Under the pieces are notes generated by a model, which searched no databases, was not told the DNA's origin, and was given only the letters and a program-made list of their open reading frames with translations. The position numbers and the translations under genes were made by a program. Shown here in pieces: positions 12,515-46,557 of a stretch of DNA of 64,000 nt; position 1 is the stretch's first letter, and the number at the start of each line of letters is the position of its first letter. This stretch comes from Actinomycetes bacterium (GTDB taxonomy: Bacteria; Actinomycetota; Actinomycetes; JACCUZ01). The stretch is from assembly GCA_038246545.1 (NCBI GenBank), contig JBBRVW010000018.1, positions 6,490 through 70,489 of the forward strand, read 5' to 3'.

Positions 12515-12544
12515 GCGACCCCACCCGCGGTCCTCATGACGTCG

Positions 12545-12599
12545 AGTGGCGCGAAGTGGCTGCTTCTCGACTCGTCAAGCAGCCATGTCGCGCCACTCA
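12545..12599. terminator. bidirectional terminator hairpin between convergent genes
   Basis: 22-bp near-perfect inverted repeat GAGTGGCGCGAAGTGGCTGCTT / AAGCAGCCATGTCGCGCCACTC with an 11-nt loop, in a locally lower-GC spacer. Confidence 0.5.
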
Positions 12600-12623
12600 A
12601 CGAGGAGATGCAGCCTGTAAGCG

Positions 12624-13322
12624 TCAGGCCCAGCGGGGCGTGCGCGCCAGCAGGACGGCGAGCGCGGCCGTTCCGGCGGTGGAGGTGCGCAGCACGGTCG
12701 GCCCGAGCCGGTACGCCGCCGCCCCGGCCGCGCCGAAGACCGCAAGCTCCTCGGGGCTCAGGCCGCCCTCCGGGCCGACCACCAGCACCACCTCGCCGCT
12801 CGCGGGCGGGCCGAACGACGCGAGCGGCGCAGCGGCATCCTCGTGCAGCAGCACCCCCGCCGCAGCGCTGCTCAGCCGCTCGGCGACGGCGGCCGTCGAG
12901 GCCAGCTCGGCGACGACGGGGAACCGGGCGCGGCGGGACTGCTTCCCGGCGGCGGCGGCCGTCGTCCGCCACCGGGAGAGGGCCTTGTCGCCCCGCCCCT
13001 CGCGCCAGCGGGTGACGCAGCGGGATGCCGCCCATGGGACAACCTCGTCCACCCCGACCTCGGTCATCGTCTCGACCGCGACCTCGCCGCGGTCGCCCTT
13101 GGGCAGCGCCTGCACCACGACGAACCACGGCGAGAGCCGCGGCTCCTCGATCAGCTCGAGCACGTCGACCTCGACGGCGTCCTTCCCGGTCACCGCGGCG
13201 ACCCGGCCGGTGGCCCGCCGCCCCGCGCCGTCGACGAGCACCAGCGGCTCGCCCACGCCAAGCCGGGTCACGGTCGCGGCGTGCCGGCCCTCAGGCCCGT
13301 CGAGCCGGACCCGGCCGGGCAC
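12624..13322 (-). CDS. rsmE: 16S rRNA (uracil1498-N3)-methyltransferase RsmE
   Basis: RsmE-like sequence (LVLVVGPEGGLSPEE, TVLRTSTAG). Listed start is GTG. Upstream in-frame sequence [13 protein letters not shown] suggests the true start is a few codons upstream at a non-canonical codon. Confidence 0.75.
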   Translation of the reverse strand: MPGRVRLDGPEGRHAATVTRLGVGEPLVLVDGAGRRATGRVAAVTGKDAVEVDVLELIEEPRLSPWFVVVQALPKGDRGEVAVETMTEVGVDEVVPWAASRCVTRWREGRGDKALSRWRTTAAAAGKQSRRARFPVVAELASTAAVAERLSSAAAGVLLHEDAAAPLASFGPPASGEVVLVVGPEGGLSPEELAVFGAAGAAAYRLGPTVLRTSTAGTAALAVLLARTPRWA

Positions 13323-13357
13323 CAGCCGGTCGCCGGGGACGACGAAGACAGGCGCGC

Positions 13358-14491
13358 TCAGCGGGCGCCGTCGTTGAAGGCGTCGCGCAGCCGGCCGAAG
13401 AAGCTCGAGCGCTGGCTGGTGACGGTGCCGACGTCGGGGCCGTCCTCGCCGCGGACGGCCGCGAGCTTGCGGAGCAGCTCCTCCTGCTCGCCGTCGAGCT
13501 TGGTCGGGGTGGCCACCTCGACGTGCACGACGAGGTCCCCGCGACCCGGGGAGCGCAGGTGCGCGACGCCGAGACCGGTGAGGGTCGAGGTCGCACCGCT
13601 CTGGGTCCCCGAGCGCAGCTCGACCGGCTTCGGCCCGTCAAGCGTCTCGATGCTCACGGTCGTGCCGAGCGCCGCGGCGGTCATCGGCACCGACACGGTG
13701 CAGTGCAGGTCGTCGCCCTGCCGGCGGAACAGGGGGTGCGGCCGCTCGACGACCTCCACGAACAGGTCGCCCGTGGGCCCGCCGCCCGGGCCCGCCTCGC
13801 CCTCGGCGGTCAGCTGGATCCGGGTGCCGGTGTCGACACCGGGCGGCACCTTCACCGTGAGGGTCCGGCGGGTCCGCACCCGCCCGTCACCACCGCACTC
13901 GTGGCAGGGCTCCGGGATGACGGTCCCGAAGCCCTGGCAGGCGGAACACGGCCGGGCGGTCATGACCTGCCCCAGGAAGCTGCGGGTCACCTGCTGGACC
14001 TCGCCGCGGCCGTGGCAGACCTCGCACCTGCGCGGTGAGGTGCCCGGGGCGGTTCCTGCTCCGCGGCAGGTCGGGCAGCCGACGGCGGTCTCGACCTGGA
14101 GGTCGCGGGTGGCGCCGAAGGTCGACTCTGCCAGGTCGACCTCGATCCGGATGAGCGCGTCCTGGCCGCGACGCTGCCGCGGCCGGGGGCCACGTGCCTG
14201 CCCGGCACCGGCACCGAAGAAGGCGTCCATGATGTCGGAGAAGCCGAAGCCCGAACCGAACCCGCCACCGGTGGAGAACGGGTCGCCGCCGAGGTCGTGC
14301 AGCTCGCGCTTCTGGGGATCGGAGAGCACCTCGTAGGCGCGGGTGACCTCCTTGAAGCGCTCCTCCTCGCCCGGGTTCACGTCGGGGTGCAGCTGGCGGG
14401 CCAGCTTGCGGTAGGCCTTCTTGATCTCCTCGGGCGTGGCGTCGCGGGCGACGCCGAGGACCTCGTAGAAGTCCTCCTGGGTGGCGGCCAT
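13358..14491 (-). CDS. dnaJ: chaperone DnaJ
   Basis: J domain with HPD (LHPDVNP), Gly/Phe region and four CxxCxGxG zinc-finger repeats. Confidence 0.9.
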
Positions 14492-15708: not shown

Positions 15709-16542
15709 ATGGACCGCTACCGCACGGACGTGCTCGCCCAGGGCTGGCGTCCGGCCCGACGCCCGGTGCCTACGGTCGAGGCCGGGCCCGGCCTCGTCGT
15801 CGAGGACGTCGAGACCGGGTTCTGCGGCGCGGTCGTCCGCTGCGAGAAGACCGCCGCGGGGCTGACCGTCACCCTCGAGGACCGGCACGGCAAGCATCGC
15901 GTCTTCCCGCTCGGCCCCGGCTTCCTCGTCGACGGCGCAGCGGTGCGGCTGGTCCGCCCCCGTGCACCCGGAGCGCCGGCCGGGCCGCGTCGTACCGCCT
16001 CCGGGTCGGTCGCCGTCGCCGGTCAGCGGGCCCGCGTCGCGCGGCAGAGCCGCATCTACGTCGAGGGCAAGCACGATGCCGAGCTGGTCGAGAAGGTGTG
16101 GGGCGACGACCTGCGCATCGAGGGCGTGGTCGTCGAGCATCTCGGCGGCATCGACGACCTCCCCGCGGTGGTCCGCGGCTTCGGACCCGGTCGCGACCGC
16201 CGGCTCGGCGTACTGGTCGACCACCTGGTCCCCGGCAGCAAGGAGTCCCGGCTCGCGGCGCAGGTGGTCTCGCCGCACGTCCGGGTCCTGGGCCACCCCT
16301 ACGTCGACGTGTGGCAGGCCGTGCGGCCCGCCGCCCTGGGCATCGACGCCTGGCCCGAGGTTCCCCGCGGGACGCCGTGGAAGGAGGGCGTGTGCGCCGG
16401 CCTCGGCTGGCCGGTGGACCCCCCGGCTGCCTGGCGCCGGATCCTCGGCGCCGTGACGGGCTACGCCGACCTCGAGCCAAGCCTGCTCGGCCGGGTCGAG
16501 GAGCTCATCGACTTCGTCTCCGACGTGGTCGACCACCCCTAG
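15709..16542 (+). CDS. DUF3097-like conserved actinobacterial protein
   Basis: 278-aa ORF from an ATG inside the long artefactual ORF 14662..16542. Divergent from hrcA, as in many actinobacteria. Confidence 0.6.
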
Positions 16543-16582
16543 CCCGTCGAGCCGACGCGCCCCCAGCGAGAGGAACCCTGCC

Positions 16583-17461
16583 ATGACGACTCCCCCGCCC
16601 GAACCGCCCGGCGGAGCCGGCGGCGACCCGTTCGCCGCACCCACGCCGCCTGGCAGCGATCCCTACCGGCTGCCGGTCGACCCGCCGACCACGCCGCCGA
16701 CCCCACCGCCACCGACCCCACCGCCCGGCCCGGCAGCGCCGGGGTACGGCTACGGCCAGCAGCCGGCGTACGGCCAGCCGACCTACCCCGGCGGTGGCGC
16801 CGCATACGGCCAGCAGCCGCCAGGGCTCGGCGACGCGCTGACCTACGGGTGGGAGAAGTTCAAGGCCAACCTCGGTCCGATCCTCACGGCCGTGGTGATC
16901 TACGTGGTGGGCGCGATCATCGTGTTCGGGATCCTCTACGCGACCATCTTCGCCGCTGCTCGCGGCGGCGACGCGGGCTTCGTCGGTGCGCTCTTCGTGT
17001 TCGCCCTGATGACCGTCGCGCTCGTGCTGCTGATCTTCCTCGTCCAGGCGGGACTGATCCGCGGCGCACTGGCCATCACACGGGGCGAGACACCCACGAC
17101 CCAGCACTTCTTCACGACCGACCACCTGGGACCGGTCGTCGCGGCCTCGCTGCTCATCGCGCTCGCGTCGGGGGTGGGCACGATCCTCTGCTACATCCCG
17201 GGCGTCATCGTCAGCTACCTGACGCAGTACGCGCTGTTCTTCGTCATCGACAAAGACATGGGCGCGATCGACGCGATCCGCGCCAGCGTGCAGTTCACGA
17301 TCGCGCACCCCGGCACGCTGATCGTCTTCGCCGTCGTGAGCGTCGTCATCCTCACCGTGGCCTCGATCGCGTGCCTGCTGCCGCTCCTGGTGGCCTTCCC
17401 CGTCGTCCTCATCGCGCAGGCCTACCTCTACAAGCGGCTGCAGGACGAGCCGGTCGCCTGA
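16583..17461 (+). CDS. integral membrane protein with Pro/Gly/Tyr/Gln-rich N-terminal low-complexity region
   Basis: N-terminal [48 protein letters not shown] followed by about 5 predicted TM helices. Confidence 0.55.
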
Positions 17462-17468
17462 CCGGACA

Positions 17469-18689
17469 TCAGGCCAGCAGGTCGCGCACCACCGCGTCGG
17501 CGAGCAGCCGGCCGCGCAGCGTCAGGGCTGCGCGGCCGTCCTCGTGCGCGGCCGACTCGAGCCGCCCGTCGTCGACCGCGCGCCGGGCGCCGTCACGTCC
17601 GGCCGCGCTGAGCTCCGCCAACGGCAGGCCCTCGCGCAGCCGGACGGCCAGCAGCGCCCGCTCGTCCCGGCGCTGCTCGGGGGTGAGCACCTCGCGGGCC
17701 TGCGCGGGGCTGGCGCCTGCCGCGAGCCGACCGGCGTACGCCGTGGGGTGCCGCACGTTCCACCAGCGCGTGCCGCCCACGTGGCTGTGCGCTCCGGGTC
17801 CGACACCCCACCAGTCGTGGCCCTGCCAGTAGCCCACGTTGTGCCGGGCGCGCTGGTGGTCGCCGCGTGACCAGTTGCTCACCTCGTACCAGTCGTAGCC
17901 GGCCGCGGCGAGCACCTCGTCGGCGAGCAGGTAACGGTCGGCGAGCTCGTCGTCGTCCGGTGCGGGGATCTCGCACCGACGGACCTGCCCGGCCATCCGG
18001 GTCCCGTCCTCGACCACCAGCGCGTAGGCGCTGACGTGGTCGGGCGACATGGCCAGCACCGCATCGAGGCTGCGCCGCCAGTCGTCCTGCGACTCTCCGG
18101 GAGTGCCGTAGATGAGGTCGAGGCTCACCCCCTCGAAGCCTGCGGTCCGCGCCCAGGCCACAGCCTGCGGCACCCGCTCGGGGTCGTGGGTGCGGTTCAG
18201 GGTCGCGAGGACGTGCGGCACTGCCGACTGCATGCCGAAGGAGATGCGGGTGAACCCCGCGGCGCGCAGCGCCGCGAGCGACGCCTCGTCGACGCTGTCC
18301 GGGTTCGCCTCCGTGGTGACCTCCGCATCGGCACACAGCCCCAGCTCGTCCCGCACCACTCCGAGCAGCCGCCCGAGGTCGCGGGGGTCGAGCACCGTCG
18401 GGGTGCCGCCGCCGAAGAAGACGGTCGCGGCCGACACGTCGGCGTCGCCGAGCACGCGCCGGGCGAGCCGCACCTCGGCCGCCGCCGTCGACGCGTAGGA
18501 CGACTGCGACGCGCCGCCGCCGAGCTCGACTGCGGTGTAGGTGTTGAAGTCGCAGTACCCGCAGCGGGTCGCGCAGAACGGGACGTGCAGGTAGACCCCG
18601 AACGGCCGGACGCCGAGTCCGGCCAGCGCGGCAGGCGGCAGTGCCCCGTCCGTCGGCACCGGCTCGCCGTCCGGCAGCGCGGAGGGCAT
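17469..18689 (-). CDS. hemW: radical SAM heme chaperone HemW (coproporphyrinogen III oxidase-like)
   Basis: CATRCGYCDF radical-SAM cysteine triad near the N-terminus, HemN-like C-terminus. Confidence 0.85.
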   Translation of the reverse strand: MPSALPDGEPVPTDGALPPAALAGLGVRPFGVYLHVPFCATRCGYCDFNTYTAVELGGGASQSSYASTAAAEVRLARRVLGDADVSAATVFFGGGTPTVLDPRDLGRLLGVVRDELGLCADAEVTTEANPDSVDEASLAALRAAGFTRISFGMQSAVPHVLATLNRTHDPERVPQAVAWARTAGFEGVSLDLIYGTPGESQDDWRRSLDAVLAMSPDHVSAYALVVEDGTRMAGQVRRCEIPAPDDDELADRYLLADEVLAAAGYDWYEVSNWSRGDHQRARHNVGYWQGHDWWGVGPGAHSHVGGTRWWNVRHPTAYAGRLAAGASPAQAREVLTPEQRRDERALLAVRLREGLPLAELSAAGRDGARRAVDDGRLESAAHEDGRAALTLRGRLLADAVVRDLLA

Positions 18690-18710
18690 CAGCGCACCCT
18701 CAGGTCGACG

Positions 18711-20537
18711 TCACGACGACGGGTACATCTCGGTGATGAGCACCGCGTGCCGCTCGGCGACCGCCTTGCGCCGCACCTTGAGGCTCGGCGTCAGCTCGCC
18801 GTCCTCGATGGTGAGGTCGTGGTCGAGGATCCGGAAGGCCTTCACGGTCTCCCAGCGGTTGAGCCGCGTGTTCATGGCGTCGACGGCGGCCGACACCTCG
18901 GCGCGCACGTCGTCACGCTGGCTGAGCTCGCCATAGCTGCCCCTGGCACCGTGGTGCTGCGCCCACTGGGTGAGCGCGTCCTCGTCGAGGGTGATGAGCG
19001 CCGCGCAGTAGCTGTGCCCGTCGCCGAGCACGACGATCTGGCTGGCCAAGGCGCACGAGCCCTTGAAGAGGATCTCGACGGCCTGCGGCGCGACGTACTT
19101 GCCGTTGGAGGTCTTGATGAGGTCCTTCTTGCGGTCGGTGATCCGCAGGAAGCCGTCGGCGTCGAGCTCTCCGATGTCGCCGGTGCGGAACCAGCCCTCG
19201 CTGTCGAGCGCCTCGGCCGACTGCTCGGGCAGGCCGTGGTAGCCGGACATGACACCGGGGCCGCGGAGCAGCACCTCGCCGTCGTCGGCGATGCGCACGT
19301 CGGTGCCCGGGAAAGGCAGCCCGACGGTGCCGAACTTGAAGCGCTCGGGCCGGTTGACGAAGGTCCCGGCGCTGGTCTCGGTGAGGCCGTAGCCCTCGAG
19401 GACCACGATGCCGGCCGCGTGGAAGAACTCCGCGACGTCCTGGGACAGGGCTGCGCTGCCCGAGACGAGGAACCGCAGCCTGCCGCCGAAGCGCTGGCGC
19501 AGCTTGCTGAAGACCAACTTGTCGGCGACCGCGTGCTGCGCCGCGAGCAGCGGGCCCGGTGTCCGGCCGTCGCGCTGCAGCCGGCCGACCTGCCGTCCGA
19601 CCCCCATCGCCCAGGTGAAGATCCGCAGCCGCAGGCCGCCTTCCTCCTGGGCCATCGTGACGACCCGGCCGCGTACCTTCTCGAAGATGCGCGGCGCGGC
19701 GGCCATGAACGTCGGCGAGACCACGGCGAGGTTGTCGATGATCCGGTCCACCCGTCCGTCGACGGCAGCCGAGGACCCGGTGGCGACCTGCGCCGCGAGC
19801 AGCACCTTGCCGAAGGCGTGCGACAGGGGCAGCCAGAGGTACTGCACGTCCTCGGAGCTGAGCAGCCCCTCGCTGTCGACCGCGACGCCCACGTAGACCC
19901 AGCAGTCGTTGCTCAGCCGGACGCCCTTCGGGCGTCCCGTGGTCCCGCTGGTGTAGATGAGCGTCGCCAGGTGCTCCGGCCTGATGGCGTCGACCGTGCG
20001 GTCCACGAGGTCCGGCTCGCTGGCCAGCCGCGCTGCTCCGCGTCGGGCGAGCTCGTCCAGGTCGATCACCCAGTCGCCGTCGGGGGTTCCGTCGAAGGTG
20101 ACCACGGTGCGCAGGGCCGGCAGCTCGTGCCGGTGCTCGCGCAGCTTGGCGAGCTGGGCGTCGTCCTCGGCGAACGCGAGCACAGCGCCGGAGTCCGCGA
20201 CGATGTACGCCACGTCGTCGGGGTTGCTGGTCGGGTAGACGGTCGTGGTGGCCGCCCCGGAGCACATGATCGCGAAGTCGGCGAGCACCCAGTCGACCCG
20301 GGTAGTGGCGATGAGGGCGACCCGCTCCTCCGGTTGCACCCCGAGGTCGAGCAGCCCCGCCGCGAGCGCCGCGACCCGGTCCCCTGCCTCCCGCCAGGAC
20401 ATCGACGCCCAGCCGTCCCCCACCGGGCTGCGGTAGGCCTCCCGCTCCGGGGTGGTGGCCACCCGGTCGAGGAACATCCGCCCTACCGACGGCGGTCGTG
20501 GCTGGGTCGTCGGCCGGTCGTCGACTGCGGAGCTCAT
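18711..20537 (-). CDS. long-chain-fatty-acid--CoA ligase (AMP-dependent synthetase/ligase)
   Basis: AMP-binding signature YTSGTTGRPKGV and a FACL-type C-terminus. Confidence 0.8.
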   Translation of the reverse strand: MSSAVDDRPTTQPRPPSVGRMFLDRVATTPEREAYRSPVGDGWASMSWREAGDRVAALAAGLLDLGVQPEERVALIATTRVDWVLADFAIMCSGAATTTVYPTSNPDDVAYIVADSGAVLAFAEDDAQLAKLREHRHELPALRTVVTFDGTPDGDWVIDLDELARRGAARLASEPDLVDRTVDAIRPEHLATLIYTSGTTGRPKGVRLSNDCWVYVGVAVDSEGLLSSEDVQYLWLPLSHAFGKVLLAAQVATGSSAAVDGRVDRIIDNLAVVSPTFMAAAPRIFEKVRGRVVTMAQEEGGLRLRIFTWAMGVGRQVGRLQRDGRTPGPLLAAQHAVADKLVFSKLRQRFGGRLRFLVSGSAALSQDVAEFFHAAGIVVLEGYGLTETSAGTFVNRPERFKFGTVGLPFPGTDVRIADDGEVLLRGPGVMSGYHGLPEQSAEALDSEGWFRTGDIGELDADGFLRITDRKKDLIKTSNGKYVAPQAVEILFKGSCALASQIVVLGDGHSYCAALITLDEDALTQWAQHHGARGSYGELSQRDDVRAEVSAAVDAMNTRLNRWETVKAFRILDHDLTIEDGELTPSLKVRRKAVAERHAVLITEMYPSS

Positions 20538-35156: not shown

Positions 35157-35308
35157 GACCTCGACGTTAGGAAGCCGGCACCCCCCAGCGGGGTTCCGGC
35201 GGCCGATCGGTGGACACCCCACCGCCTGTGGACGACCGGCGCCGCGCCGCCGACCGGGCGACGGTCAGCCGGTGCCCGTCGGGCGTCGGTCGGGCGTCAG
35301 TCGGGCGG

Positions 35309-36157
35309 TCAGTGCGGTGCGACGACGACGGCCAGCATCCCGGGACCCACGTGGGCGCCGACCACGGCACCGACCTCGCTGACGACCAGCCGGTCCAGTC
35401 CGGTCATCCGTCCCCGGAGCCGCCCGGCCAGCGCCTCGGCCCGCTCCGGACTGGCCAGGTGGTGCACCGCGACGTCGACCGGGCGGCTGCCGGCCGCGGC
35501 CACCGCGACCTCCTCGAGCCGGGCGATCGCCTTGGCGGCGGTGCGCACCTTCTCCAGCGGCTCGATGTGCCCGTCGACCATCTGCAGCAGCGGCTTCATG
35601 GCCAGCGCCGACCCGACAAGGGCGGCCGCTGCGCCGATCCGCCCGCCCCTGCGGAGGTGCTCGAGCGTGTCGACGTAGAAGACGGCGGTCGAGGCCGAGG
35701 CTCGACGTCGAGCGGCGTCGGCGACCTCGTCCTCGGGCCGGCCCTCGGCTGCCGCAGCCGCCGCCGAGAGGACGGCGAAGCCCAGCCCCATGCCCAGCGT
35801 CTCGGAGTCGACGACCTCGGTGGGCACCGGCGACTCCTTGGCGGCCAGCCGGGCCGACTCGACCGTGCCGGACATCTGCGCCGACAGGTGCACCGACACG
35901 ACCGCCCCGCAGCCGGCGTCGGCAGCCCGCTGGTAGGCCGCCGCGAACGCCGCCGGCCCGGGCCTGGACGTCGAGACCGGCTGCCAGCGACGCAGCGCGT
36001 CGGCGACCGTTCCGGCCGAGGCCTGGTCGAGCTCGTCGTACGACGTGCCGCCGATCACCACCTGCAGCGGCACCACCTCGATGCCGCTCTCGCGGACCAG
36101 CTCGGCCGGCAGGTACGCCGTCGAGTCGGTGACGACCCCGACCCGGTGCTCCGACAT
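35309..36157 (-). CDS. DegV family fatty-acid-binding protein
   Basis: VVTDSTAYLP N-terminus and DegV fold pattern. Confidence 0.8.
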   Translation of the reverse strand: MSEHRVGVVTDSTAYLPAELVRESGIEVVPLQVVIGGTSYDELDQASAGTVADALRRWQPVSTSRPGPAAFAAAYQRAADAGCGAVVSVHLSAQMSGTVESARLAAKESPVPTEVVDSETLGMGLGFAVLSAAAAAAEGRPEDEVADAARRRASASTAVFYVDTLEHLRRGGRIGAAAALVGSALAMKPLLQMVDGHIEPLEKVRTAAKAIARLEEVAVAAAGSRPVDVAVHHLASPERAEALAGRLRGRMTGLDRLVVSEVGAVVGAHVGPGMLAVVVAPH

Positions 36158-36232
36158 GCGGTGAGGCTACCGACCGGGCCGCGGGCGCGCGGGCAGGTCG
36201 GCCCGGGCGGGCCGGTCAGCCGCTCAGCCCGC

Positions 36233-39097
36233 TCAGCCCGGGACGACGTTGACCAGCTTGGGTGCCCGCACGACGACCGTCCGCACCCCGCGGCCCTCCA
36301 GGGCCCGCTGCACCGCCTCGGACGCCAGCGCCTTCTCGCGCAGCGCGTCCTCGGTGATGTCGGCCGGCACCTCCAGCCGGTCGCGAACCTTGCCCTGCAC
36401 CTGCACGACGCAGGTCACGGTGTCCTCGACCAGCAGGGCCGGGTCGGCGACCGGGAAGTCGACATAGGTCAGCGACCCGTGGTGGCCCAGCCGCGACCAC
36501 AGCTCCTCCGCCAGGTGCGGGGCCAGCGGCGCCACCATCAGCACCAGCGCCTCGGCGACCTCGCGGTGCGTGACTCCGGTCTTGACCACGTGGTTGTTCA
36601 GCTCGATCAGCCGGGCGATGGAGGTGTTGGCTCGCAGGTTCTCCATGTCGGTGCGCACCGTATCGATGGTGCGGTGCAGCAGCCGGCGCGTCGCCTCGTC
36701 AGCAGGCTCGTCGACGACGCGCACTGCACCGGTCTCCTCGTCGACGACGTTGCGCCACAACCGCTGCAGGAACCGGTGCGAGCCGATGACCGCGCGCGTC
36801 TCCCACGGCCGCGACGCGTCCAGCGGGCCCATCGACATCTCGTACAGCCGGAACGTGTCGGCGCCGTACGTGTCGCACATGTCGTCCGGCGTGACCATGT
36901 TCTTCAGGCTCTTGCCCATCTTCCCGTAGTCACGGTTGACGGGCCGGCCCTCGTGCAGGTAGGTGACGACGCCGTCCACCAGCTCCTGCGTGACCTCTTC
37001 GGCCGGGACGTACAGGCCGCGCTCGTCGGTGTAGGCGAAGGCCTGGATCATCCCCTGGTTGAACAGCTTGTGGAAGGGCTCGCTGCTCGACACGTGGCCC
37101 AGGTCGTGCAGCACCTTGTGCCAGAACCGCGCGTACAGCAGGTGCAGCACCGCGTGCTCCGCGCCCCCGACGTACAGGTCGACACCACCGGTGTGCCCCT
37201 CGCCCTGCGGGCCCATCCAGTACCGCTCCACCTCCGGGTCGACGAACCGCTCGGTGTTGGTCGGGTCCAGGTAGCGCAGCTCGTACCAGCAGGAGCCGGC
37301 CCACTGCGGCATGGTGTTGGTCTCGCGGCGGTACTGCTTCGGCCCGTCGCCCAGGTCCAGGGTCACCTCCACCCAGTCGGAGTTGCGCGCCAGCGGCGGC
37401 TCCGGCTCGGACGTCGTGTCGCCCTCGGGGAAGGTCCGCGGCGAGTAGTCGTCGACCTCCGGCAGCTCGACGGGCAGCATCGAGTCAGGGACGGCGACGG
37501 GCAGGTCTTGCTCGTCGTAGACGATCGGGAACGGCTCGCCCCAGTAGCGCTGCCGGCTGAACAGCCAGTCGCGCAGCTTGTAGGTCACGGTGCGCCGGCC
37601 TTTGCCCTTCGACTCCAGCCAGTCGATGATCCGCGCCTTGGCCTCGGTGACGCCCAGCCCGTCCAGGCTGATCTCCTCGTTGGCGGAGTTGATCGCCGGG
37701 CCGTCACCCGTGAACGCCTCGCCGTCCCAGCTCTCCGGCGGCGCCACGGTACGGACGATCGGCAGGCCGAAGCGCTTCGCGAACTCCCAGTCACGCTCGT
37801 CCTGGCCGGGCACCGCCATGATCGCGCCGGTGCCGTAGCCCATCAGGACGTAGTCGGCGACGAACACCGGCAGCGCCTGCCCGTTGGCCGGGTTGGTCGC
37901 GTGGCCACCGGTCCACACTCCGGTCTTCTCGCGGCCCTCGGTCTGCCGCTCCAGGTCGGTCCTCAGCTCCGCCGACCGCCGGTACGCCTCGACGGCGTCG
38001 CGAGGCGTCGCGTGACCGCCGGTCCACGACGTCGGTACGTCGCCGGGCCAGGCACCGGTAGCCAGCAGGTCGACGGCGGGGTGCTCGGGCGCGACCACCA
38101 TGAACGTCGCACCGAACAACGTGTCGGGCCGGGTGGTGAAGACCTCCAGGGCGCCGCCGTCGCTGGCGAACTCGACCACCGCCCCCTCGGACCGGCCGAT
38201 CCAGTTGCGCTGCTGCAGCTTGATGGACTCCGGCCAGTCCAACGTGTCCAGGTCGGCAAGCAGCCGGTGCGCGTAAGCGGTGATGCGCATCTTCCACTGC
38301 CGCAGGTCGCGCTTGAAGACGGGGAAGTTGCCGCGGTCGCTGCGCCCCTCGGAGGTGACCTCCTCGTTGGCCAACACGGTGCCCAGGGCAGGGCACCAGT
38401 TGACCGGGGCGTGCGAGACGTAGGCCAGCCGGTGCGCGTCGACCACCCGTCGGCGCGCCACCTCGTCCAGGTCCGCCCACGGGGTGCCGTCGGCGACACC
38501 GGGCACACCGGTCGGCAGCGGCCGGGCGCCGGACGCGAGCAGGGGCACCAGCTCGTCGACCGGACGGGCCCGGTCCGCCTGCTCGTCGTACCAGCTCGAG
38601 AAGATCTGGTTGAAGATCCACTGCGTCCAACGGTAGAAGCCGGTGTCGATCGTCGTGACGCTGCGGCGCGGGTCGTGGGCCAGCCCCAGCCGTCGCAGCT
38701 GGGCGCGCATCGTGGCGGTGTTGGACTCCGTGGTGACCCGCGGGTGCTGGCCGGTCTGCACGGCGTACTGCTCGGCGGGCAGGCCGAACGCGTCGTAGCC
38801 CAGCGCGTGCAGCACGTTGTGCCCGGTCATCCGCTTGAACCGGCCGTAGACGTCGGTCGCGATGTAGCCCAGCGGGTGGCCGACGTGCAGCCCGATGCCG
38901 GAGGGGTACGGGAACATGTCCAGCACGTACTTCTTCGGCCGCGCGGCGACCTTGTCCGGCTCCGCCATCGGGCCGGCCGGGTTCGGCGCCTCGAAGGTGC
39001 GCTCGGCGTCCCACCGGTCCTGCCAGCGGCTCTCGATCTCGCCGGCCATCGCCGCGGTGTAGCGGTACGGCGCCTCGTCGCGGGGGGTGTCGGTCAT
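36233..39097 (-). CDS. leuS: leucine--tRNA ligase
   Basis: [18 protein letters not shown] (HIGH) and KMGKS (KMSKS) motifs, about 954 aa. Confidence 0.95.
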
Positions 39098-39142
39098 GTC
39101 GTCGCGCCTCTTCGGGTCGTCTGCCGGGTCCGGACATGGAAA

Positions 39143-39164
39143 AGCCCCTCGACGTGGAGGGGCT
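39143..39164 (-). terminator. intrinsic terminator downstream of the GGDEF gene
   Basis: AGCCCCTC-GACGTG-GAGGGGCT hairpin followed on the minus strand by TTTTCC. Confidence 0.45.
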
Positions 39165-39308
39165 GCCGCGCTGACGTGGTGCTGGTCAGCGCGGCTCGGT
39201 AAGGAGCAGTCCGTACCTCACCTCGGCAGCGTACCGGATCGCCAGGGTCTGCTCATATGCCGACGTGCCCGGACCAGAGGCGGGCAGCAGGTCCGCCACT
39301 GAAGAGAG

Positions 39309-40762: not shown

Positions 40763-41653
40763 TCACCGGAAGGGCCGCGCGGCGGTCGCGGACGGCGGCG
40801 GCCGCCGTCGACGGGTTACTCGCTCGGGCCGTGCCACGGCGTCGAGCACGGCCCACACGACCTTGCCGCCGTCGGGGTGCGGGAGCACGCCCCAGGCACT
40901 GGTGAGCTGGGCGACGATGGCTAGGCCGCGCCCGTCTTCGTCCGAGCGCCGCCCGTGCTGCTCGACCGGCGGGTCATGACTGTGGTCCCGAACCGCTATG
41001 CGGATCGACCGTCGGTGCTCGGCGACGGTCAGGTCGATGTCGGTGCCGGCGTGGATCATCGCGTTGGTGACGAGCTCGCTGGCGACGAGGCAGGCGTCGG
41101 CGATCTGCTGGGTCAGCCGCCACTCCAGCAGGGTTCGGCTGACGAGGTCTCGTGCGGCTCGTGGCGCGGTCGGGTGGGGCGCAAGTCGCCGCGACACCAC
41201 AGCGGGGCGGGCGGCCTGAAGGATCGCCGACAGGGCCAGTGGCAGCGATGCGGTGACCATGAGTCGGCCACCGAGGAGGTCGGTTCGGAGTGCCTGTCCG
41301 CCTCGCGCGCCGAGGCAGGTCATCGCCACAGGGACACCGGGCCAGTCGCGTGGGTGCCTGCCAGCCGAGGCGAGCTTCAGAAGCGCACCGGGTGCGCTGA
41401 CGTCGACCACTCGGGACATGTCGCAGGCCACACCACGCGGTCCTTGTGCCAGAGCGAGCCGGATCGCGTGGTCCAGCTCTTCGACGATATCGCCGAGGGG
41501 ACCCGCGACGTCCAGGACGATGACCTGACCCACGGGGTGGGTGTCGACCGACGTCCGCTGCGTCGCCGCGTCGCTCCGTGGCCGGCCCGCTGTCCCGTCG
41601 AATCGGCGGGCCGGCACTGCCGTGAGGTGTGGCTGCTTCGATGTCCGCGCCAT
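40763..41653 (-). CDS. single-chain STAS (anti-sigma antagonist-like) + HATPase_c (anti-sigma kinase-like) fusion protein
   Basis: N-terminal STAS-like region (VIVLDVAGPLGDIVEELDHAIRLAL...) fused to an RsbW-like ATPase (LVASELVTNAMIHAGTDIDL...DGRGLAIVAQL). Confidence 0.6.
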   Translation of the reverse strand: MARTSKQPHLTAVPARRFDGTAGRPRSDAATQRTSVDTHPVGQVIVLDVAGPLGDIVEELDHAIRLALAQGPRGVACDMSRVVDVSAPGALLKLASAGRHPRDWPGVPVAMTCLGARGGQALRTDLLGGRLMVTASLPLALSAILQAARPAVVSRRLAPHPTAPRAARDLVSRTLLEWRLTQQIADACLVASELVTNAMIHAGTDIDLTVAEHRRSIRIAVRDHSHDPPVEQHGRRSDEDGRGLAIVAQLTSAWGVLPHPDGGKVVWAVLDAVARPERVTRRRRPPPSATAARPFR

Positions 41654-41902
41654 GACGCTCGAACTACCTTCGGTCGTCCTGACCCACAGGACGAGACCAC
41701 CGGGTCCTGACGCGGCCGCGGCGTCGAGCGAGCGCGATCGGGGTCTGGGAGGGCGCCGAACCCGACGCTACGCTCGCGGGTCCGACGAAGCCAATTGACC
41801 TTTGCTGACGGACGGCGCGACCGGACCACCCGGCGGCGACCCGGACCGGAGCCGTCGATCTTGTCAACCTGTCAAGCTGTCAATCTCCGGTACCCGGACG
41901 AG

Positions 41903-42001
41903 GGCACCAGAGCCGACTCTGGCCGCCTCCCGACAGGGGAAACGGCCAGGTCATCGAGGTGGAGCTGAGGGGGCTCGAACCCCTGACCCCCACACTGCCA
42001 G
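41903..42001. repeat. att-like direct repeat carrying a displaced tRNA-Ala 3' half (left island boundary)
   Basis: About 99 bp with about 90% identity to 45274..45372. Includes GGTGGAGCTGAGGGGGCTCGAACCCCTGACCCCCACACTGCCAG (tRNA positions 32-75) plus about 55 nt of tRNA-downstream sequence. The 5' half of the tRNA is absent here. Confidence 0.6.
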
Positions 42002-42149
42002 CTTGGCCGACGGTCGTCCGCCTCCGATCGTGCATGTCGTTTCCGCAGGTCCGCGCAGTATGACGGGGCCGTGCGGACCCCTGCGAACTGCCTCGGATTG
42101 AAGCAGTGGCCACCAAAGTGGCACCAGAATCGCAGCGGCAGCCTCGTCG

Positions 42150-42981
42150 TCACCTCCTGCTGGTCGGGACGTCCCGTCGCGGGGAGCGCTCAGCTTTCGG
42201 ACTCAACGGCGATGTTGCGGATGCCACCGGGGCGACCTGCCGTGATCCACGTTCGGTACAAACCCCAGCGATCAGTAGGGAGGCGCCGAGGCTGGCCAGC
42301 GGAGGGCCCCGCGCGAGGTTCACCACCAGCGTGAACGTGACGACCCGGGCACCCAAGACGTTCAGCAGGGGATGGCCTCGGCGTCTGTCGTGGGGGGAGA
42401 ACACAGCCATCGCCGCTAGTCCGGCCAAACGGCTCAGGAAAACCGAGACGGCGTAGAACAGGACGAGTTCCTGGTCACGCCCGCCGGCAGCAGCAGTGAC
42501 TGCCCCCGCGGCCACGTTGAACACGACGACCCCCCAGAACGGGGTGTGATGAGCGTTCGTCCGGCCCAGCGGATGCCTTCAGTGGTACCGGTCCGGCTGG
42601 TGTGTCGAGCCAGCGCCTTGAGCAGGCCCGGGCCGGCCTGGAACGAGGAGCTTGCGGCCGACAGCAGCAGCAGTGCGCTGACCAGCTGGAACGCCGCGAA
42701 CAGAGGCCCGGGCGCGGCCACCCGGCGAGCTCAGCGATCTGGGTGCTGTCCGCGGGCGGGATTCCGACCTGGAGGTCCATCGTTGGAACCAGCGGCGCCA
42801 GGTCGCCACGCAGCGCGCGCAAGGCAGCCTCGACGGCGTAGGCCACGGACGACACCGGGTCGGCCATGATGGCGTAGGAGAACGCCAGCAGCGGGGCGGG
42901 CCGAGAACGGAGGGCAATGCCGAGCCGGACGGTCCGGTGGTACCGGCTGGGGCCGTGTTCTGGGTCCGGGGGCATGGCCAC
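42150..42981 (-). pseudogene. fragmented, truncated membrane transporter (permease N-terminal region split over three frames)
   Basis: Pieces LLAFSYAIMADPVSSVAYAVEAALRAL..., LFAAFQLVSALLLLSAASS... and FNVAAGAVTAAAGG...LVLFYAVSVFLSRLAGLAA... lie in different frames on the minus strand. The gene ends abruptly near the island boundary. Confidence 0.35.
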
Positions 42982-43044
42982 CGTTCGAGGCCGCGGGCAA
43001 CCGCGAAAGGTCGGCTTCGGGGCCGGCGTTGCTGGGCGATGCGG

Positions 43045-44037
43045 TCAGCCGCCGTGGTCCTCGGCGGAAGGAGTGCGACGTCGGCTGCTTACCAGCGCGG
43101 CCCGCTTGGCCGAAAGTCGCGACCAGACTGCCTGCTGGAAGGCCAGTGTCCCCCAACCGGCCAGGGCCATGCCGGTCAGGTTGACCAGCAGCTGCAGTCC
43201 ACTGCCCGCCACCTCGTGCCAGGCGCCGAAAGCCAGGCCGAGAGCCACGTTGCCCGAAGCCGGCACGGTGGTCACTGAGATGAACACCCCCGACAGACCA
43301 CCCACTTTCGCCGACGTCAAGGACAGCACTCCGGCGGCGGCGGCGGCGATGGCCACCAGGAAGGACCACTTGTCAGGCGTGTAGATGAAGTCGGTCTGTG
43401 GACGTCGTCCGACGACGTCAGCCCGCTCGACCCATCCGACGGCCCGCGCGAGCAGAGCGAGCAGTGTCGCGATCACGATGGAGGTGCCGAAACCCAGCAA
43501 CAGCGTACTCAGCGCGCGTCCCAACAGGGTTCGGCGTCGTCGGACGAGTGCCAGGCCTAGCGCCGCGATAGGAACGAACTCCGGTCCAAGCACCATCGCC
43601 CCAATGACGAGGATCTGCGAGTCCAGCACGATGGCGATGCTCGCGATCAGCGTTGCCAGTGACATGAAGCTGAGATAGGTCCAGTTCAGCTCCGAGTCCT
43701 CGTAGGCGCGCTGGGTGACCTCCGCCCACACGACCGAGTCCGAGCTGCTGCCCGGCGTCAACCGCTCCGCGTCGAACCCGCGCTGCGACAGCCAGGCCTG
43801 CACCGGCTCGAGGTGGATCGTGCCTTCCTCCGGGACACCGAGGTCACGCAGCCTGTCAACGACCTGGTTGGCGCCCTCCCTGGCGATGTCGGCAAGGATG
43901 ACGTCACCTTCTGGGAGCAGCGACGCACCGCGGAGAACAGCGAGGCTGCTGACGGCTCCGTCCCGTTCGAGCATCTCGACCACCGGCCCCGAGAGCGCAG
44001 TCGTGGTCGACACCCGCAGCTGCAGCACGTTGGACAT
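43045..44037 (-). CDS. DUF389 (TIGR00341-like) membrane protein
   Basis: 330-aa intact ORF with a soluble N-terminal domain and about 6 TM helices. ATG at 44037. Confidence 0.6.
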   Translation of the reverse strand: MSNVLQLRVSTTTALSGPVVEMLERDGAVSSLAVLRGASLLPEGDVILADIAREGANQVVDRLRDLGVPEEGTIHLEPVQAWLSQRGFDAERLTPGSSSDSVVWAEVTQRAYEDSELNWTYLSFMSLATLIASIAIVLDSQILVIGAMVLGPEFVPIAALGLALVRRRRTLLGRALSTLLLGFGTSIVIATLLALLARAVGWVERADVVGRRPQTDFIYTPDKWSFLVAIAAAAAGVLSLTSAKVGGLSGVFISVTTVPASGNVALGLAFGAWHEVAGSGLQLLVNLTGMALAGWGTLAFQQAVWSRLSAKRAALVSSRRRTPSAEDHGG

Positions 44038-44242
44038 CCTCGCTCACCGCCGGGCCCAGCCATCCACCTGCGGCACGCCGACACGCCGGTCCATGGCGCC
44101 CGCCGGGCTCGTCTGGCCGCGCCTCGCGTCAAGAACGCGTCAAGATCGCAGACCGCGGCGTCAGGACGGCGTTAACGACTCCGCTACCACACCCGCGGCA
44201 CTGGAAAGAGGTTCGCGTGAGCAACATGCTGTCTGCGCCGAG

Positions 44243-45260
44243 GTGACAGCCAAGGTCCGAGCCGTGGAGCGCCGGCGCGATGAGGGCGTCGCGGCGGCTT
44301 CCGGCCGCGGGTCTACTCTGTCGGAATGGCTTGAGCACTGGCTCGAGCAGATCGCCGCTCGACGAGTCCGACCCAGGACTCTTGAGAGCTACCGAGCGAC
44401 CGGTCCGGCTCCACATCGGCCCTAGCATCGGCGCGCAGCGGCTCGCGAAATTGCAGCCCGAACAGGTCGAGGCGATGTACGGCCAGATGCTCGCCTCGGG
44501 CCTCTCCGCGTCTTCCGTACTGCGCACCCACCGCATCCTCAGCCGTGCTCTCAAGGTCGCCATGCAGCGCGGCAAGATCACCCGCAACGTGTGTACTCTG
44601 GTGGACCCGCCGACACCGAAGCGGTCCGAAAGCAGCCCGCTGACTGTCGACGAGGCGCGGCGGGTGCTGAATGCTGCACAAGACGTCAGGAATCCGGCTC
44701 GCTGGACGGTTGCCCTGGCGCTCGGCCTGCGACAGTCCGACGCGCTCGGCCTGGCGTGGTCCGACGTCGACCTGGCTGGCGGGACGCTTTCGGTCCGGCT
44801 GGGGCTCCACCGTGTCTCCGGTAAGGGGCTCGTGTTCGAGGAGCCCAAGTCGGCCCGCAGTCGCCGAACTCTGGCCCTGCCAGCCCAGCTCGTCGACGGG
44901 CTTCGTCTCCAGCGCCTGGCGCAAGACAGGGAACGTGAGGTCGCCGGCACCGAGTGGCAGGGTCAGGACTTCGCATTCGCCCAGGCCAACGGACGCCCGC
45001 TCGATCGCCGCTCCGACTGGGAGCACTGGCGAGCCCGCCTCACCTCGGCCGGAGTCCGGCGGGTCCGCCTGCACGACGGACGGCACACGGCTGCGACCCT
45101 GCTGCTCACGGCCGGAGTACACCGAGGGTCGTCATGGAACTGCCCGGCCACTCCCAGATGCGCACGACCACCGACGTCTACAGCCACGTTATGCCAGCCC
45201 TCGCCCGGGAAGCCGCCGAGCAGATGGGGACGGCCCTGTTGGGGCCCTGACCGAAACTAG
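44243..45260 (+). pseudogene. int: tyrosine-type site-specific integrase with two frameshifts and a short N-terminus
   Basis: Frame 1 is ...TLSEWLEHWLEQIAARRVRPRTLESYR, then stop. Frame 2 is VRLHIGPSIGAQRLAKLQPEQVEAMY...VRLHDGRHTAATLLLTAGVH. Frame 3 is PRVVMELPGHSQMRTTTDVYSHVMPALAREAAEQMG, with catalytic R..HxxR..Y. Shifts lie near 44396..44402 and 45122 (apparent loss of one C in a run). Confidence 0.65.
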
Positions 45261-45273
45261 TGGCCACCAAAAT

Positions 45274-45372
45274 GGCACCAAAGACGACACTGGCCGCCTC
45301 CCAGAAAGGGAAACGGCCAGGTCATCGGGGTGGAGCTGAGGGGACTCGAACCCCTGACCCCCACACTGCCAG
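45274..45372. repeat. att-like direct repeat overlapping the 3' half of the intact tRNA-Ala (right island boundary)
   Basis: Matches 41903..42001. It spans from about 55 nt downstream of the tRNA 3' end to the anticodon loop. Confidence 0.6.
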
Positions 45373-45403
45373 TGTGGTGCGCTACCAGCTGCGCCACAGC
45401 CCC
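45329..45403 (-). tRNA. tRNA-Ala (anticodon GGC)
   Basis: Reverse complement GGGGCTGTGGCGCAGCTGGTAGCGCACCACACTGGCAGTGTGGGGGTCAGGGGTTCGAGTCCCCTCAGCTCCACC folds as a cloverleaf: 7-bp acceptor stem with G3:U70 (Ala identity), D-loop AGCTGGTA, anticodon loop CTGGCAG, T-loop TTCGAGT, discriminator A. CCA is not fully encoded. Confidence 0.85.
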
Positions 45404-45490
45404 TTGCCACTACGTGCGGTACTGCCGCTCGCACGGCCGAGCCAGTCTAACGGGTACCCCGCACGGGCACGAATCGAGCCATGGTCCCGG

Positions 45491-46111
45491 CTACTCGTCG
45501 TCACCCATGACGGGCTCGGGCAGGCTGCCCGCGTTGTGCTCCACCAGCCGCCAGCCGGCGGGAGGCACCTCCTCGAGCACCGACCAGCAGCAGTTGGCCA
45601 GTCCCCCGACGACCGCCCACCGGTCCAACGGCAGGTCGAGCATCGCGCCGATCGCGGCCCGGGCCGAGCCGCCGTGCGTGACGACCACCAGCGTGCCGCC
45701 CGGCGGCACCTCGCCGAGCGCGTCGGCGATCGCCGGGACCACGCGGGCGGCCACCTCGGTGCGCCGCTCGCCACCACCGGCCGGGACGTCGTCGCCGGCC
45801 CGCCACGAGGTGTAGATCTCGTGGTCGGCCGCGTCGATCTCGGTCGCCGTGCGTCCCTGCCACCGGGCGCCGTAGGTCTCGCGCAGCCGCTCGTCATGGC
45901 GCACGTCCAGCTCGCAGAGGCAGGCCAGGGCGGCCGCCGTGGAGCCGGCGCGCACCAGGTCGGAGGAGACGATCGCGGCCGGCTCGAGCGTGGTCAGCAG
46001 GCGAGCGGCCCGCTCCGCCTGGGCGACCCCGACCTCGTCGAGCTCGATGTCGCTGCTGCCCTGGAACCGCTCCTCGAGGTTCCACGAGGTCTGCCCGTGC
46101 CGCCAGAGCAC
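45491..46111 (-). CDS. histidine phosphatase family protein (phosphoglycerate-mutase-like; GpgP-like)
   Basis: VVLWRHGQTSWN (RHG catalytic motif) and HGG later. Only in-frame canonical starts are GTG at 46111 or ATG at 46318; the latter overlaps rsfS by 180 nt. Position matches Mtb Rv2419c next to rsfS/nadD. Confidence 0.6.
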   Translation of the reverse strand: MLWRHGQTSWNLEERFQGSSDIELDEVGVAQAERAARLLTTLEPAAIVSSDLVRAGSTAAALACLCELDVRHDERLRETYGARWQGRTATEIDAADHEIYTSWRAGDDVPAGGGERRTEVAARVVPAIADALGEVPPGGTLVVVTHGGSARAAIGAMLDLPLDRWAVVGGLANCCWSVLEEVPPAGWRLVEHNAGSLPEPVMGDDE

Positions 46112-46137
46112 GACCCGCCGGCCGGTGCTCCCGCGGC

Positions 46138-46557
46138 TCAGGACGCGGCCCCCTCGACCCCGCCGCCGAGGTGGGACCGCTGGCTGTGGGCCGACCGGAC
46201 AGACTCGGGCAGCTCGACCGTCGGGCAGTCCTTCCAGATCCGCTCGAGAGAGTAGTAGACCCGCTCCTCGGCATGCTGGACGTGAACGATGATGTCGACG
46301 TAGTCGAGCAGGATCCAACGGCCCTCGCGCTCGCCCTCGCGGCGGACCGGTTTGGCGCCGAGCGTGCGCAGCCGCTCCTCGATCCCGTCGACGACGGCGC
46401 GCACCTGGCGGTCGTTGGAGGCCGAGCAGAGGACGAAGACGTCGGTGATGACAAGCTGGTCCCCCACGTCGAACGCGAGGATGTCGTCGGCAAGCTTGTC
46501 GGCGGCGGCTTCGGCAGCGGCTACCGCGAGCTCACGGGCACGGGGGGAGACGGTCAC
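46138..46557 (-). CDS. rsfS: ribosomal silencing factor RsfS (Iojap family)
   Basis: DVFVLCSASNDRQVRAVVDGIEE...WILLDYVDIIVHV pattern. Confidence 0.85.
   Translation of the reverse strand: MTVSPRARELAVAAAEAAADKLADDILAFDVGDQLVITDVFVLCSASNDRQVRAVVDGIEERLRTLGAKPVRREGEREGRWILLDYVDIIVHVQHAEERVYYSLERIWKDCPTVELPESVRSAHSQRSHLGGGVEGAAS

Follow-up and report, generated by a model that had tools for sequence, protein, structure and literature searches.

In tDNA islands of the type described in Islander (PMC4383910), a regenerated tDNA and a displaced tDNA fragment mark the island ends, and one class of attP sites is centred on the anticodon (Williams 2002, as cited in Islander, PMC4383910). The searched text of Ghinet et al. 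describes such remnants and related integrases that target the same tRNA gene, and makes no mention of tRNA-Ala; mycobacteriophage Ms6, according to the available text of PMC1762012, recombines in the T-loop of tRNA-Ala through a short core. The locus studied here lies in a 64 kb stretch of DNA from an uncultured soil actinobacterium, which was analysed as a whole and is called the window below, and a sequence-only reading had proposed that it holds an old, decayed integrative element in tRNA-Ala(GGC). Similar to the Islander islands, it has an intact, regenerated tRNA, a same-orientation 3′ fragment at the far end, a tyrosine integrase (here a pseudogene) inside the island beside the tDNA, and an identity block running from the anticodon loop to the tRNA 3′ end, an anatomy that places it by sequence in the anticodon-loop ('A') class of attP/attB. 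In contrast to that class, its integrase is a pseudogene, the island is just 3.4 kb long without mobility genes, and the identity block runs 55 nt past the tRNA to include a whole terminator hairpin. With the elements treated in the searched text of Ghinet et al. it shares the actinobacterial host, the tRNA 3′-part target and the tyrosine integrase, and a TrwC relaxase lies beside the integrase of a relative (L010); unlike them, the window carries no rep, FtsK-like tra or relaxase gene. Only int, DUF389 and the APC permease can be recognised between the junctions, and the AICE hallmarks (RepSA/RepAM/prim-pol plus FtsK/SpoIIIE-like Tra) are absent; likewise, no relaxase homologue (MOBF TrwC or PF03432) was found in the window, which sets it apart from relaxase-bearing ICE/IME. 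Like Ms6 as presented in the available text of PMC1762012, it is an actinobacterial element whose tyrosine integrase targets tRNA-Ala and restores the 3′ end, but it has an identity block of ~100 nt that begins at the anticodon loop, and its family is associated with relaxases, not phage genes.

ARAGORN detected tRNA-Ala(GGC), at 45329-45403 on the minus strand, as the sole tRNA in the 64 kb, as had been expected. The direct repeats of about 100 bp and about 90% identity reported earlier correspond to a 99-nt homology with 9 mismatches (91% identical) between a distal copy at 41903-42001 and a tRNA-proximal copy at 45274-45372, the int-side junction, both on the minus strand and 3371 bp apart, and a repeat search of the window returned the pair 41903-42006 and 45274-45377 (104 nt, 89% identity). 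Of the 99 nt, 44 belong to the tRNA (positions 32-73, which reach from the anticodon loop to its 3′ end), and the other 55 nt follow downstream. Its homology begins at CTGGCAG (tRNA positions 32-38) in the window and also in two independent soil contigs (L065 and L067), where the motif, terminator and tRNA 3′ half stop at CTGCCAG and are followed by non-tRNA DNA. The tRNA fragment of the distal copy (41958-42001) has the orientation of the intact tRNA and one mismatch to it, with a T-loop change at 41973, and the tRNA-Ala sequence is identical in relatives L003-L011. With up to 3 mismatches allowed, two occurrences of the 44-nt tRNA half were found in the window, against 0 expected by chance; as 64 kb hold only these two copies, the distal copy does not belong to a dispersed repeat of tRNA-like or terminator type, at least in the window. 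On its far side, a window-specific stretch of 62 nt (41841-41902) separates the distal copy from the point where homology to L003, the nearest relative, resumes, and three TGTCAA hexamers with a period of 8 lie within it.

The 55 nt past the tRNA are predicted to be the terminator hairpin of tRNA-Ala. A terminator scan and RNAalifold delineated a 13-bp hairpin followed by the tail TGTCGTCTTT at 45290-45320 (minus strand), and 9 of its 13 pairs showed compensatory changes in RNAalifold on 13 sequences, so the proximal copy combines the GC-rich hairpin, T-rich tail and conserved structure of an intrinsic terminator; in the distal hairpin (41919-41949) the stem is preserved, but the tail is poorer. 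None of the 26 stem positions carries any of the 8 mismatches by which the two copies differ in their terminator part. The repeat divergence of about 10%, taken earlier as a sign of age, is therefore real, but much of it is likely an attP/attB difference that predates the insertion, and since that difference would already have been there at insertion, the divergence is not a clean clock. The tRNA-proximal copy probably derives from the attP of the element, which would make the part of the tRNA from the anticodon loop onward element-supplied, and the distal copy would be the displaced native tRNA 3′ half with its native terminator block.

The integrase remnant (44235-45260, plus strand), delineated by PF00589 (E 8.5e-13), three-frame translation and DNA alignment to the integrase gene of L010, directly adjoins the tRNA as claimed, its end being 69 nt from the tRNA 3′ end. 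It corresponds to residues 36-375 of an intact 375-aa homologue, with the start codon and first 35 codons gone, and the repaired protein is 91-92% identical to L010/P0001. The frame is indeed broken, by three 1-nt indels (+1 at 44402, -1 at 45122 and +1 at 45239) rather than the two frameshifts counted earlier. The indels fall in short homopolymer runs of 2-3 nt. Two Logan contigs from other sequencing runs and independent assemblies (L001 and L002) are 99.98-100% identical across the island, with L002 covering all three indels, L001 covering 44402, and both covering the 5′ truncation. Because these independent contigs reproduce the indels, the frameshifts are real, and assembly error was ruled out as their cause. 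Judged by its sequence, the gene is a former member of the tyrosine recombinases and now a pseudogene, and no other homologue of it was found within the window. The junction stretch between its truncated 5′ end and the start of DUF389 (44038-44234) has no homology to L010, and may consist of a deletion scar plus the DUF389 upstream region.

Relatives of the integrase occupy the same site. The Sporichthyaceae MAG L010, from another genus-level lineage, carries an intact, ~92%-identical integrase at tRNA-Ala(GGC), followed by a 965-aa TrwC relaxase/helicase (E 5.7e-70). Between the window and L010, the int-side junction of 149 nt is 97% identical and the host gpgP DNA 73.5%, and dS is 0.36 for int vs. 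0.90 for gpgP; both comparisons indicate that the element moved horizontally. Further, integrases of 69-72% identity in L048-L051 adjoin tRNA-Ala(GGC)-gpgP-RsfS-LytR-NadD, and L048 also has an HTH_17 gene, a PF03432 relaxase and P450 cargo. As the L048 backbone uses a PF03432 relaxase, the integrase module appears common to different backbones, and because the relaxases of L010 (TrwC) and L048 (PF03432) both adjoin int, the ancestral element probably had a relaxase as well. In the ~10 kb available in L010, L048 and L051, neither a second tRNA fragment nor a complete element with both junctions was found.

A tandem repeat occurs in only two copies in the 64 kb (0 expected by chance). The copy GTGGCCACCA-AA-ATGGCACCA (45260-45280, plus strand) lies between the int stop codon and the terminator as a candidate P′ arm, and the copy GTGGCCACCA-AA-GTGGCACCA (42106-42126, plus strand) lies 104 nt inside the distal junction as a candidate P arm; 2-4 TGGCACCA-like repeats were also present at the int-adjacent position in L010, L003, L048/L050 and L051. 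Similar to lambda-type heterobivalent integrases, direct repeats about one helical turn apart flank both sides of the core, and this integrase has an extra N-terminal region ahead of its SAM-like domain, whereas the candidate TGGCACCA-like repeat, overlapping the int stop codon and the terminator tail, is particular to this family. The TGGCACCA-like repeats near both junctions are candidate arm-type integrase sites; for the P arm and the arm-site role, the suggestion comes from the window together with a weak resemblance in L065. A search of metagenome contigs for the distal-junction layout (anticodon-side core, 85-115 nt, motif) gave no match, and a motif-only search gave 11 contigs; nine of them, several being low in GC, matched by chance or were unrelated, so that only L065 and L067 were relevant. 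A GGTCCGC...GCGGACC hairpin, read from the sequence, follows the permease pseudogene on its downstream side, within the P arm (42048-42079). L065 has a similar GTCCGC/GCGGAC hairpin at a comparable place.

As described earlier, the cargo consists of one intact gene plus transporter fragments. The only intact gene in the island (43045-44037, minus strand; PF04087, E 1.9e-30) encodes a DUF389 membrane protein of the TIGR00271 type, 330 aa in length. It is 91% identical in amino acids to the L003 copy with a dN/dS of 0.15, a value consistent with purifying selection on the gene, and being both intact and under such selection, it would effectively be a domesticated host gene. The fragments make up one APC-family amino-acid permease pseudogene (42193-42981, minus strand; mapped by tblastn), which keeps residues ~16-67 and ~265-464 of a ~465-aa protein, has lost ~197 internal codons by deletion and contains at least two frameshifts. 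Pfam gave no match to the permease fragments, single or merged, and its identity was settled by a word-seeded homology search, in which homologues at E 1e-81 (PF13520) are named amino acid or APC permeases; a comparison with a 665-aa AA_permease_2 protein was weakly significant. The GC profile showed the expected dip, with 65-69% inside the island vs. 72-76% in the flanks, and GC3 of DUF389 was 0.82 vs. 0.90-0.92 in flanking genes. Elsewhere, homologues of DUF389 and the permease lie in ordinary chromosomal neighbourhoods without integrases, and their contexts showed no recurring link with integrases, tRNA-Ala or each other; it is the position and composition of the two genes that suggest their status as cargo.

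The nearest relative, L003, holds the DUF389 gene, the last ~70 nt of the integrase and the tRNA-proximal junction (96% identical to that of the window), which bears out the claim that the insertion is old, while the distal repeat copy is absent from it, and an ECF sigma/YciI pair occupies the place that the permease pseudogene, P arm and distal copy take in the window. Because those last ~70 nt of the integrase remain, L003 once had the element, and by sequence it is a further-decayed version of the island and not an empty site; neither of the two genomes simply derives from the other. Between the two, the dS of DUF389 is 0.37 and that of the flanks 0.05-0.15, making the gene about 2.5-7 times more diverged, which would not be expected if one island had simply been inherited vertically. 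In L007, with 73% gpgP identity, the HATPase_c_2 gene comes immediately after gpgP and tRNA-Ala, and nothing island-like separates them. Other relatives carry different, unrelated genes at the locus, where DUF389 is absent outside the window and L003, and no strain-level empty site was found among the relatives.

The repeat that starts at the anticodon loop, the integrase kin at the same tRNA, the GC dip and L007 all bear out the proposal of a decayed integrative element, and the locus is very probably an immobilised remnant of an integrative mobilisable or conjugative element that entered tRNA-Ala(GGC) via its tyrosine integrase. Its attP would have been a ~100-nt look-alike of the target, reaching from the tRNA anticodon loop to the 3′ end and through the terminator hairpin, and strand exchange would have taken place in or next to the anticodon loop, as at a class 'A' tDNA site, with the TGGCACCA-like repeats flanking the core serving as arm-type sites for the integrase N-terminal domain. 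The element-borne copy at 45274-45372 would have completed the tRNA gene and supplied its terminator, and the original 3′ half with its terminator would have been pushed 3.37 kb away to 41903-42001. Deletions would then have taken the integrase 5′ end and the excision and transfer genes beyond it, a region that in relatives holds an HTH_17 excisionase-like gene and a relaxase; the three 1-nt indels would have killed the integrase, and the APC permease cargo would have decayed, with DUF389 kept by purifying selection. On this reading the element has lost the ability to excise by itself.

Several features of the interior would also fit an accretion of two elements, which is possible though doubtful. 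DUF389, the permease, the P arm and the distal fragment would then represent an older island, and the integrase with the proximal junction a later family member that entered the regenerated tRNA, before one deletion took its interior, its distal junction and the older integrase end. The deletion that cut the integrase 5′ end indeed has its other end just upstream of DUF389, the dS of that gene between the window and L003 is far above the divergence of the int-side junction or the flanks, and the content of the locus, a hotspot, differs in every relative; attP-like internal junctions by truncated integrases, as in L065/L067, are expected in tandem arrays, which are documented at tDNAs in Islander (PMC4383910). 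However, the tandem repeat of the P arm is also that of the int-side arm, for which a single element is enough, the interior has kept no tRNA fragment that would make an extra element directly visible, and insertion of a single element is more parsimonious.

It is very improbable that DUF389 and the permease are native genes, with the distal fragment being, for example, a decayed duplicate of tRNA-Ala and the integrase fragment an unrelated insertion. Duplication does occur at the locus, as the three tRNA-Ala(GGC) genes after gpgP in Kitasatospora (L014) show, DUF389 homologues are widespread chromosomal genes, and L003 has DUF389 without the distal fragment, but the start of the fragment coincides exactly with the anticodon loop, where crossover canonically occurs, and its orientation is right; the integrase family is specific for tRNA-Ala(GGC), and a second copy of the arm repeat lies 104 nt inward of the distal fragment. 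The integrase tail in L003 shows that the element was once there too, DUF389 is missing from the locus in all relatives other than L003, and GC and GC3 are below those of the flanks. That the element is still mobile, with the frameshifts being sequencing errors or with excision in trans by another integrase, is hardly credible: both junctions and both arm repeats are intact and the indels lie in homopolymer runs, yet L001/L002 reproduce the indels and the 5′ truncation, the start codon and 35 codons of the integrase are missing, no excisionase or relaxase is left, and the window holds no second integrase homologue.

As a decayed tRNA-targeting island, this remnant is of an ordinary, already well-known type and leaves the general understanding unchanged. 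In it, tRNA-Ala(GGC) beside gpgP emerges as the preferred target of a large, undescribed actinobacterial integrase clade with over 2,800 homologues, which could be of use for detecting islands in MAGs, as a marker, or for obtaining tools for site-specific integration. It is conceivable, and put forward only tentatively, that tRNA-Ala(GGC)/gpgP is a lineage-wide hotspot in soil Actinomycetes, used by one abundant integrase clade whose candidate attP would bring a full terminator to replace that of the target, together with TGGCACCA arm sites in tandem, and that decayed islands there swap interiors by homologous recombination. Such an exchange of interiors, if true, would explain both the raised synonymous divergence of DUF389 and the replacement difference between the window and L003. 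For annotation, 41903-45372 can be marked as horizontally acquired, now fixed DNA, in which int and the permease are to be labelled pseudogenes and DUF389 a passenger gene retained under selection. The neighbouring gene that the sequence-only reading had called STAS encodes a 296-aa protein that showed no STAS match even at E <= 1, and has an HATPase_c_2 domain instead.

The window contained a single tRNA (ARAGORN search of the 64 kb), the intact tRNA-Ala(GGC) at 45329–45403 on the minus strand, as the sequence-only reading had anticipated. A repeat search found 41903–42006 and 45274–45377 (104 nt, 89% identity) to be the sole long direct repeat within 41000–46500, and pairwise alignment with a position-by-position count gave a contiguous homology of 41903–42001 vs. 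45274–45372 (99 nt, 9 mismatches), exactly the coordinates of that reading. In tRNA orientation, the first base of the block is the start of the anticodon loop (CTGGCAG, positions 32–38), and the block spans 44 nt to the tRNA 3′ end plus 55 nt downstream. At ≤3 mismatches, the 44-nt tRNA part occurred only twice in the 64 kb, while none was expected in shuffled sequences; therefore, dispersed tRNA-like or terminator elements do not account for the distal copy within the window.

The 55 nt downstream of the tRNA consist of a 13-bp hairpin (CTGGCCGTTTCCC / GGGAGGCGGCCAG) and a T-rich tail, and the tRNA-proximal hairpin copy was detected by a terminator scan. When the sequences 3′ of tRNA-Ala(GGC) from eleven related genomes were aligned with the two window copies, RNAalifold predicted the same hairpin, with compensatory changes at 9 of the 13 pairs, indicating that the 55-nt block is the putative tRNA-Ala terminator, a structurally conserved chromosomal feature, of which the element carries its own copy. 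The previously noted repeat divergence of about 10% was correct as a figure (9/99), while its interpretation as simple decay is argued against by the mismatch pattern: eight of the nine mismatches lie in the 55-nt terminator part and one in the 44-nt tRNA part, and none of the former falls on the 26 stem positions (chance about (29/55)^8 = 0.006). Such stem-sparing differences would fit two terminators, the element's and the host's, both functional at insertion, with post-insertion drift probably contributing too.

The integrase pseudogene (44235–45260, plus strand; Pfam PF00589, E 8.5e-13) was compared with the intact 375-aa homologue of L010, a Sporichthyaceae MAG locus. DNA homology sets in only at residue 36; the start codon and the first 35 codons have thus been lost, and three 1-nt indels are present (+1 at 44402, −1 at 45122, and +1 at 45239). 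The gene is thus frameshifted as previously described, though by three indels plus the 5′ loss rather than doubly. Assembly error as the source of these lesions was ruled out, because two Logan contigs from other sequencing runs, 99.98–100% identical to the window at the island, span them: L002 covers all three indels, and both L001 and L002 cover the 44402 indel and the 5′ truncation.

The repaired protein is 91–92% identical to those of L010 and P0001. In L010, the integrase (~92% identical) is followed by a 965-aa TrwC relaxase/helicase. Between the window and L010, the 149-nt integrase-side junction is 97% identical and the integrase dS is 0.36 (dN/dS 0.10), while the adjacent phosphatase gene gpgP shows only 73.5% DNA identity (70% for the protein) and a dS of 0.90. 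These results indicated horizontal movement of the element; the integrase gene remained functional during most of its divergence. Its clade is large, with 2,892 proteins at E ≤ 1e-30, and the 69–72%-identical members looked up (L048–L051) also reside at tRNA-Ala(GGC)-gpgP-RsfS-LytR-NadD, one of them (L048) with an HTH_17 excisionase-like gene, a PF03432 relaxase, and P450 cargo. Given this common site and the differing relaxases and cargo, the clade is specific for tRNA-Ala(GGC) and joined to various backbones.

The cargo was found, as first read, to be one intact gene plus transporter fragments: a 330-aa DUF389 gene (43045–44037, minus strand; PF04087, E 1.9e-30) and an APC-family permease pseudogene (about 42193–42981, minus strand) recognized by homology search and tblastn. 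The permease fragments had no Pfam match, and their merged translation matched amino-acid/APC permeases of about 465 aa (E 1e-81); tblastn placed residues 16–67 and 265–464, spread over three frames, and showed a deletion of about 197 codons. In the contexts examined, homologues of DUF389 and the permease elsewhere lie in ordinary chromosomal neighbourhoods, linked neither to integrases nor to each other. The GC profile suggested as a check dropped to 65–69% within the island vs. 72–76% outside, and GC3 was 0.82 for DUF389 and 0.90–0.92 for neighbouring genes.

A genome-collection scan using the adjacent phosphatase (gpgP, PF00300) yielded 45 loci, mostly from uncultured soil Actinomycetes, and tRNA-Ala(GGC) lay just downstream of gpgP in all 21 loci scanned for tRNAs. 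The gene content after the tRNA differs between species in every case: MFS transporter and rhodanese genes (L006), APH-like kinase and PNPOx genes (L009), DUF2252 (L008), the intact integrase and then the TrwC relaxase/helicase (L010), or, in an empty-like arrangement, the HATPase_c_2 gene directly (L007). The locus looks like a long-standing integration hotspot (L003–L011, L026, L035, and L036). In Kitasatospora cinereorecta, a member of a cultured genus, three tRNA-Ala(GGC) genes follow gpgP (L014, 2591–5440), a tandem pair and a third copy at a distance of 2.6 kb, which points to duplication or to island activity here as well.

The nearest relative, L003, has flanks 93–95% identical to the window (gpgP dS 0.05, HATPase dS 0.15) and retains the tRNA-proximal junction, the repeat motif, and, ahead of DUF389, the final ~70 nt of the integrase. 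The element had therefore inserted before the two lineages separated, and calling it old was fair. No distal tRNA copy was found in L003; in the position of the permease pseudogene, the P arm, and the distal junction (window 41843–42884), it has genes for an ECF sigma factor (Sigma70_r2/r4 + DUF6596) and a YciI-domain protein (12136–13916), a pair absent from the window and from the other loci compared. The DUF389 proteins (window 43045–44037, L003 10984–11976) are 91% identical (dN/dS 0.15), and their dS of 0.37 is 2.5–7 times that of the flanking genes, indicating that the history of the interior reaches back further than that of the flanks, the interior being either older than them or exchanged relative to them. 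This could reflect exchange of the interior with a divergent island variant, or the accretion of two elements and their subsequent trimming. Between its GGDEF gene and leuS, L003 also has about 3.4 kb (16434–19839) that is absent from the window.

A 21-nt tandem repeat, GTGGCCACCA-AA-GTGGCACCA, occurs at 42106–42126 and, with one mismatch, at 45260–45280, with no further copy in the 64-kb window. Two to four TGGCACCA-like repeats, about 11–12 nt apart, lie between the integrase stop codon and the terminator in every family member compared (window, L010, L003, L048/L050, and L051), including those with a different terminator stem. Since the second pair of the window sits 104 nt inside the distal junction, a reconstructed attP would have putative arm repeats to either side of its core. 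Repeats on both sides of the core are the layout of lambda-type integrase arm-type sites, which the candidate repeats would share. Half of the arm motif, GGTGCC, forms the end of the terminator tails in L003–L011, L026, L035, and L036, also where no integrase is present. In two soil metagenome contigs (L065, 1126–1400, and L067), a truncated integrase C-terminus is followed by a small ORF, then by the motif and the terminator, and finally by the tRNA-Ala 3′ half; the tRNA sequence ends exactly at CTGCCAG of the anticodon loop and gives way to non-tRNA DNA, with a GTCCGC/GCGGAC hairpin and a CTGC(A/C)ACCA pair further along. Their resemblance to the window P arm is weak. This attP-like junction is probably an internal tandem-array junction or a free attP, and it independently confirms the anticodon-loop boundary.

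The decayed integrative element inserted in tRNA-Ala is real and was correctly read. Islander defines a tDNA island by its regenerated tDNA, the 3′ fragment displaced from it, and a tyrosine integrase alongside, and 2,083 islands of that database belong to its anticodon-centred attP class (PMC4383910); the window island shows this anatomy and matches this class. Actinobacterial element remnants, and related integrases targeting the same tRNA, are described by Ghinet et al. (PMC3218068) and in the AICE review (PMC2440964). The island does not belong to the AICEs or ICEs, because no rep, tra, or relaxase gene is left. Mycobacteriophage Ms6 shares the tRNA-Ala target, while its site is in the T-loop (PMC1762012) and the window block starts from the anticodon loop. 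The island is thus a degraded, immobile one of a well-known kind, and the integrase clade that made it is ordinary, if not specifically described; mildly unusual are only the inclusion of the whole terminator in the identity block, the conservation of the arm-like repeats, and the excessive divergence of DUF389.

Beside the island, a 1330-aa open frame (35210–39202, plus strand) antisense to leuS (36233–39097, minus strand) was dismissed as a gene, being a spurious long antisense ORF typical at about 72% GC. The 296-aa neighbour (40763–41653, minus strand), previously labelled STAS, instead carries an HATPase_c_2 domain (RsbW-like kinase) at its C-terminus; a search of the N-terminal 150 aa for STAS was negative even at E ≤ 1. 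Within a 62-nt stretch (41841–41902) missing in L003, some 210 nt upstream of this gene, three TGTCAA hexamers (TTGACA on the minus strand) with an exact 8-nt period occupy 41862–41883; they may represent an array of regulator or promoter sites, or else a scar.
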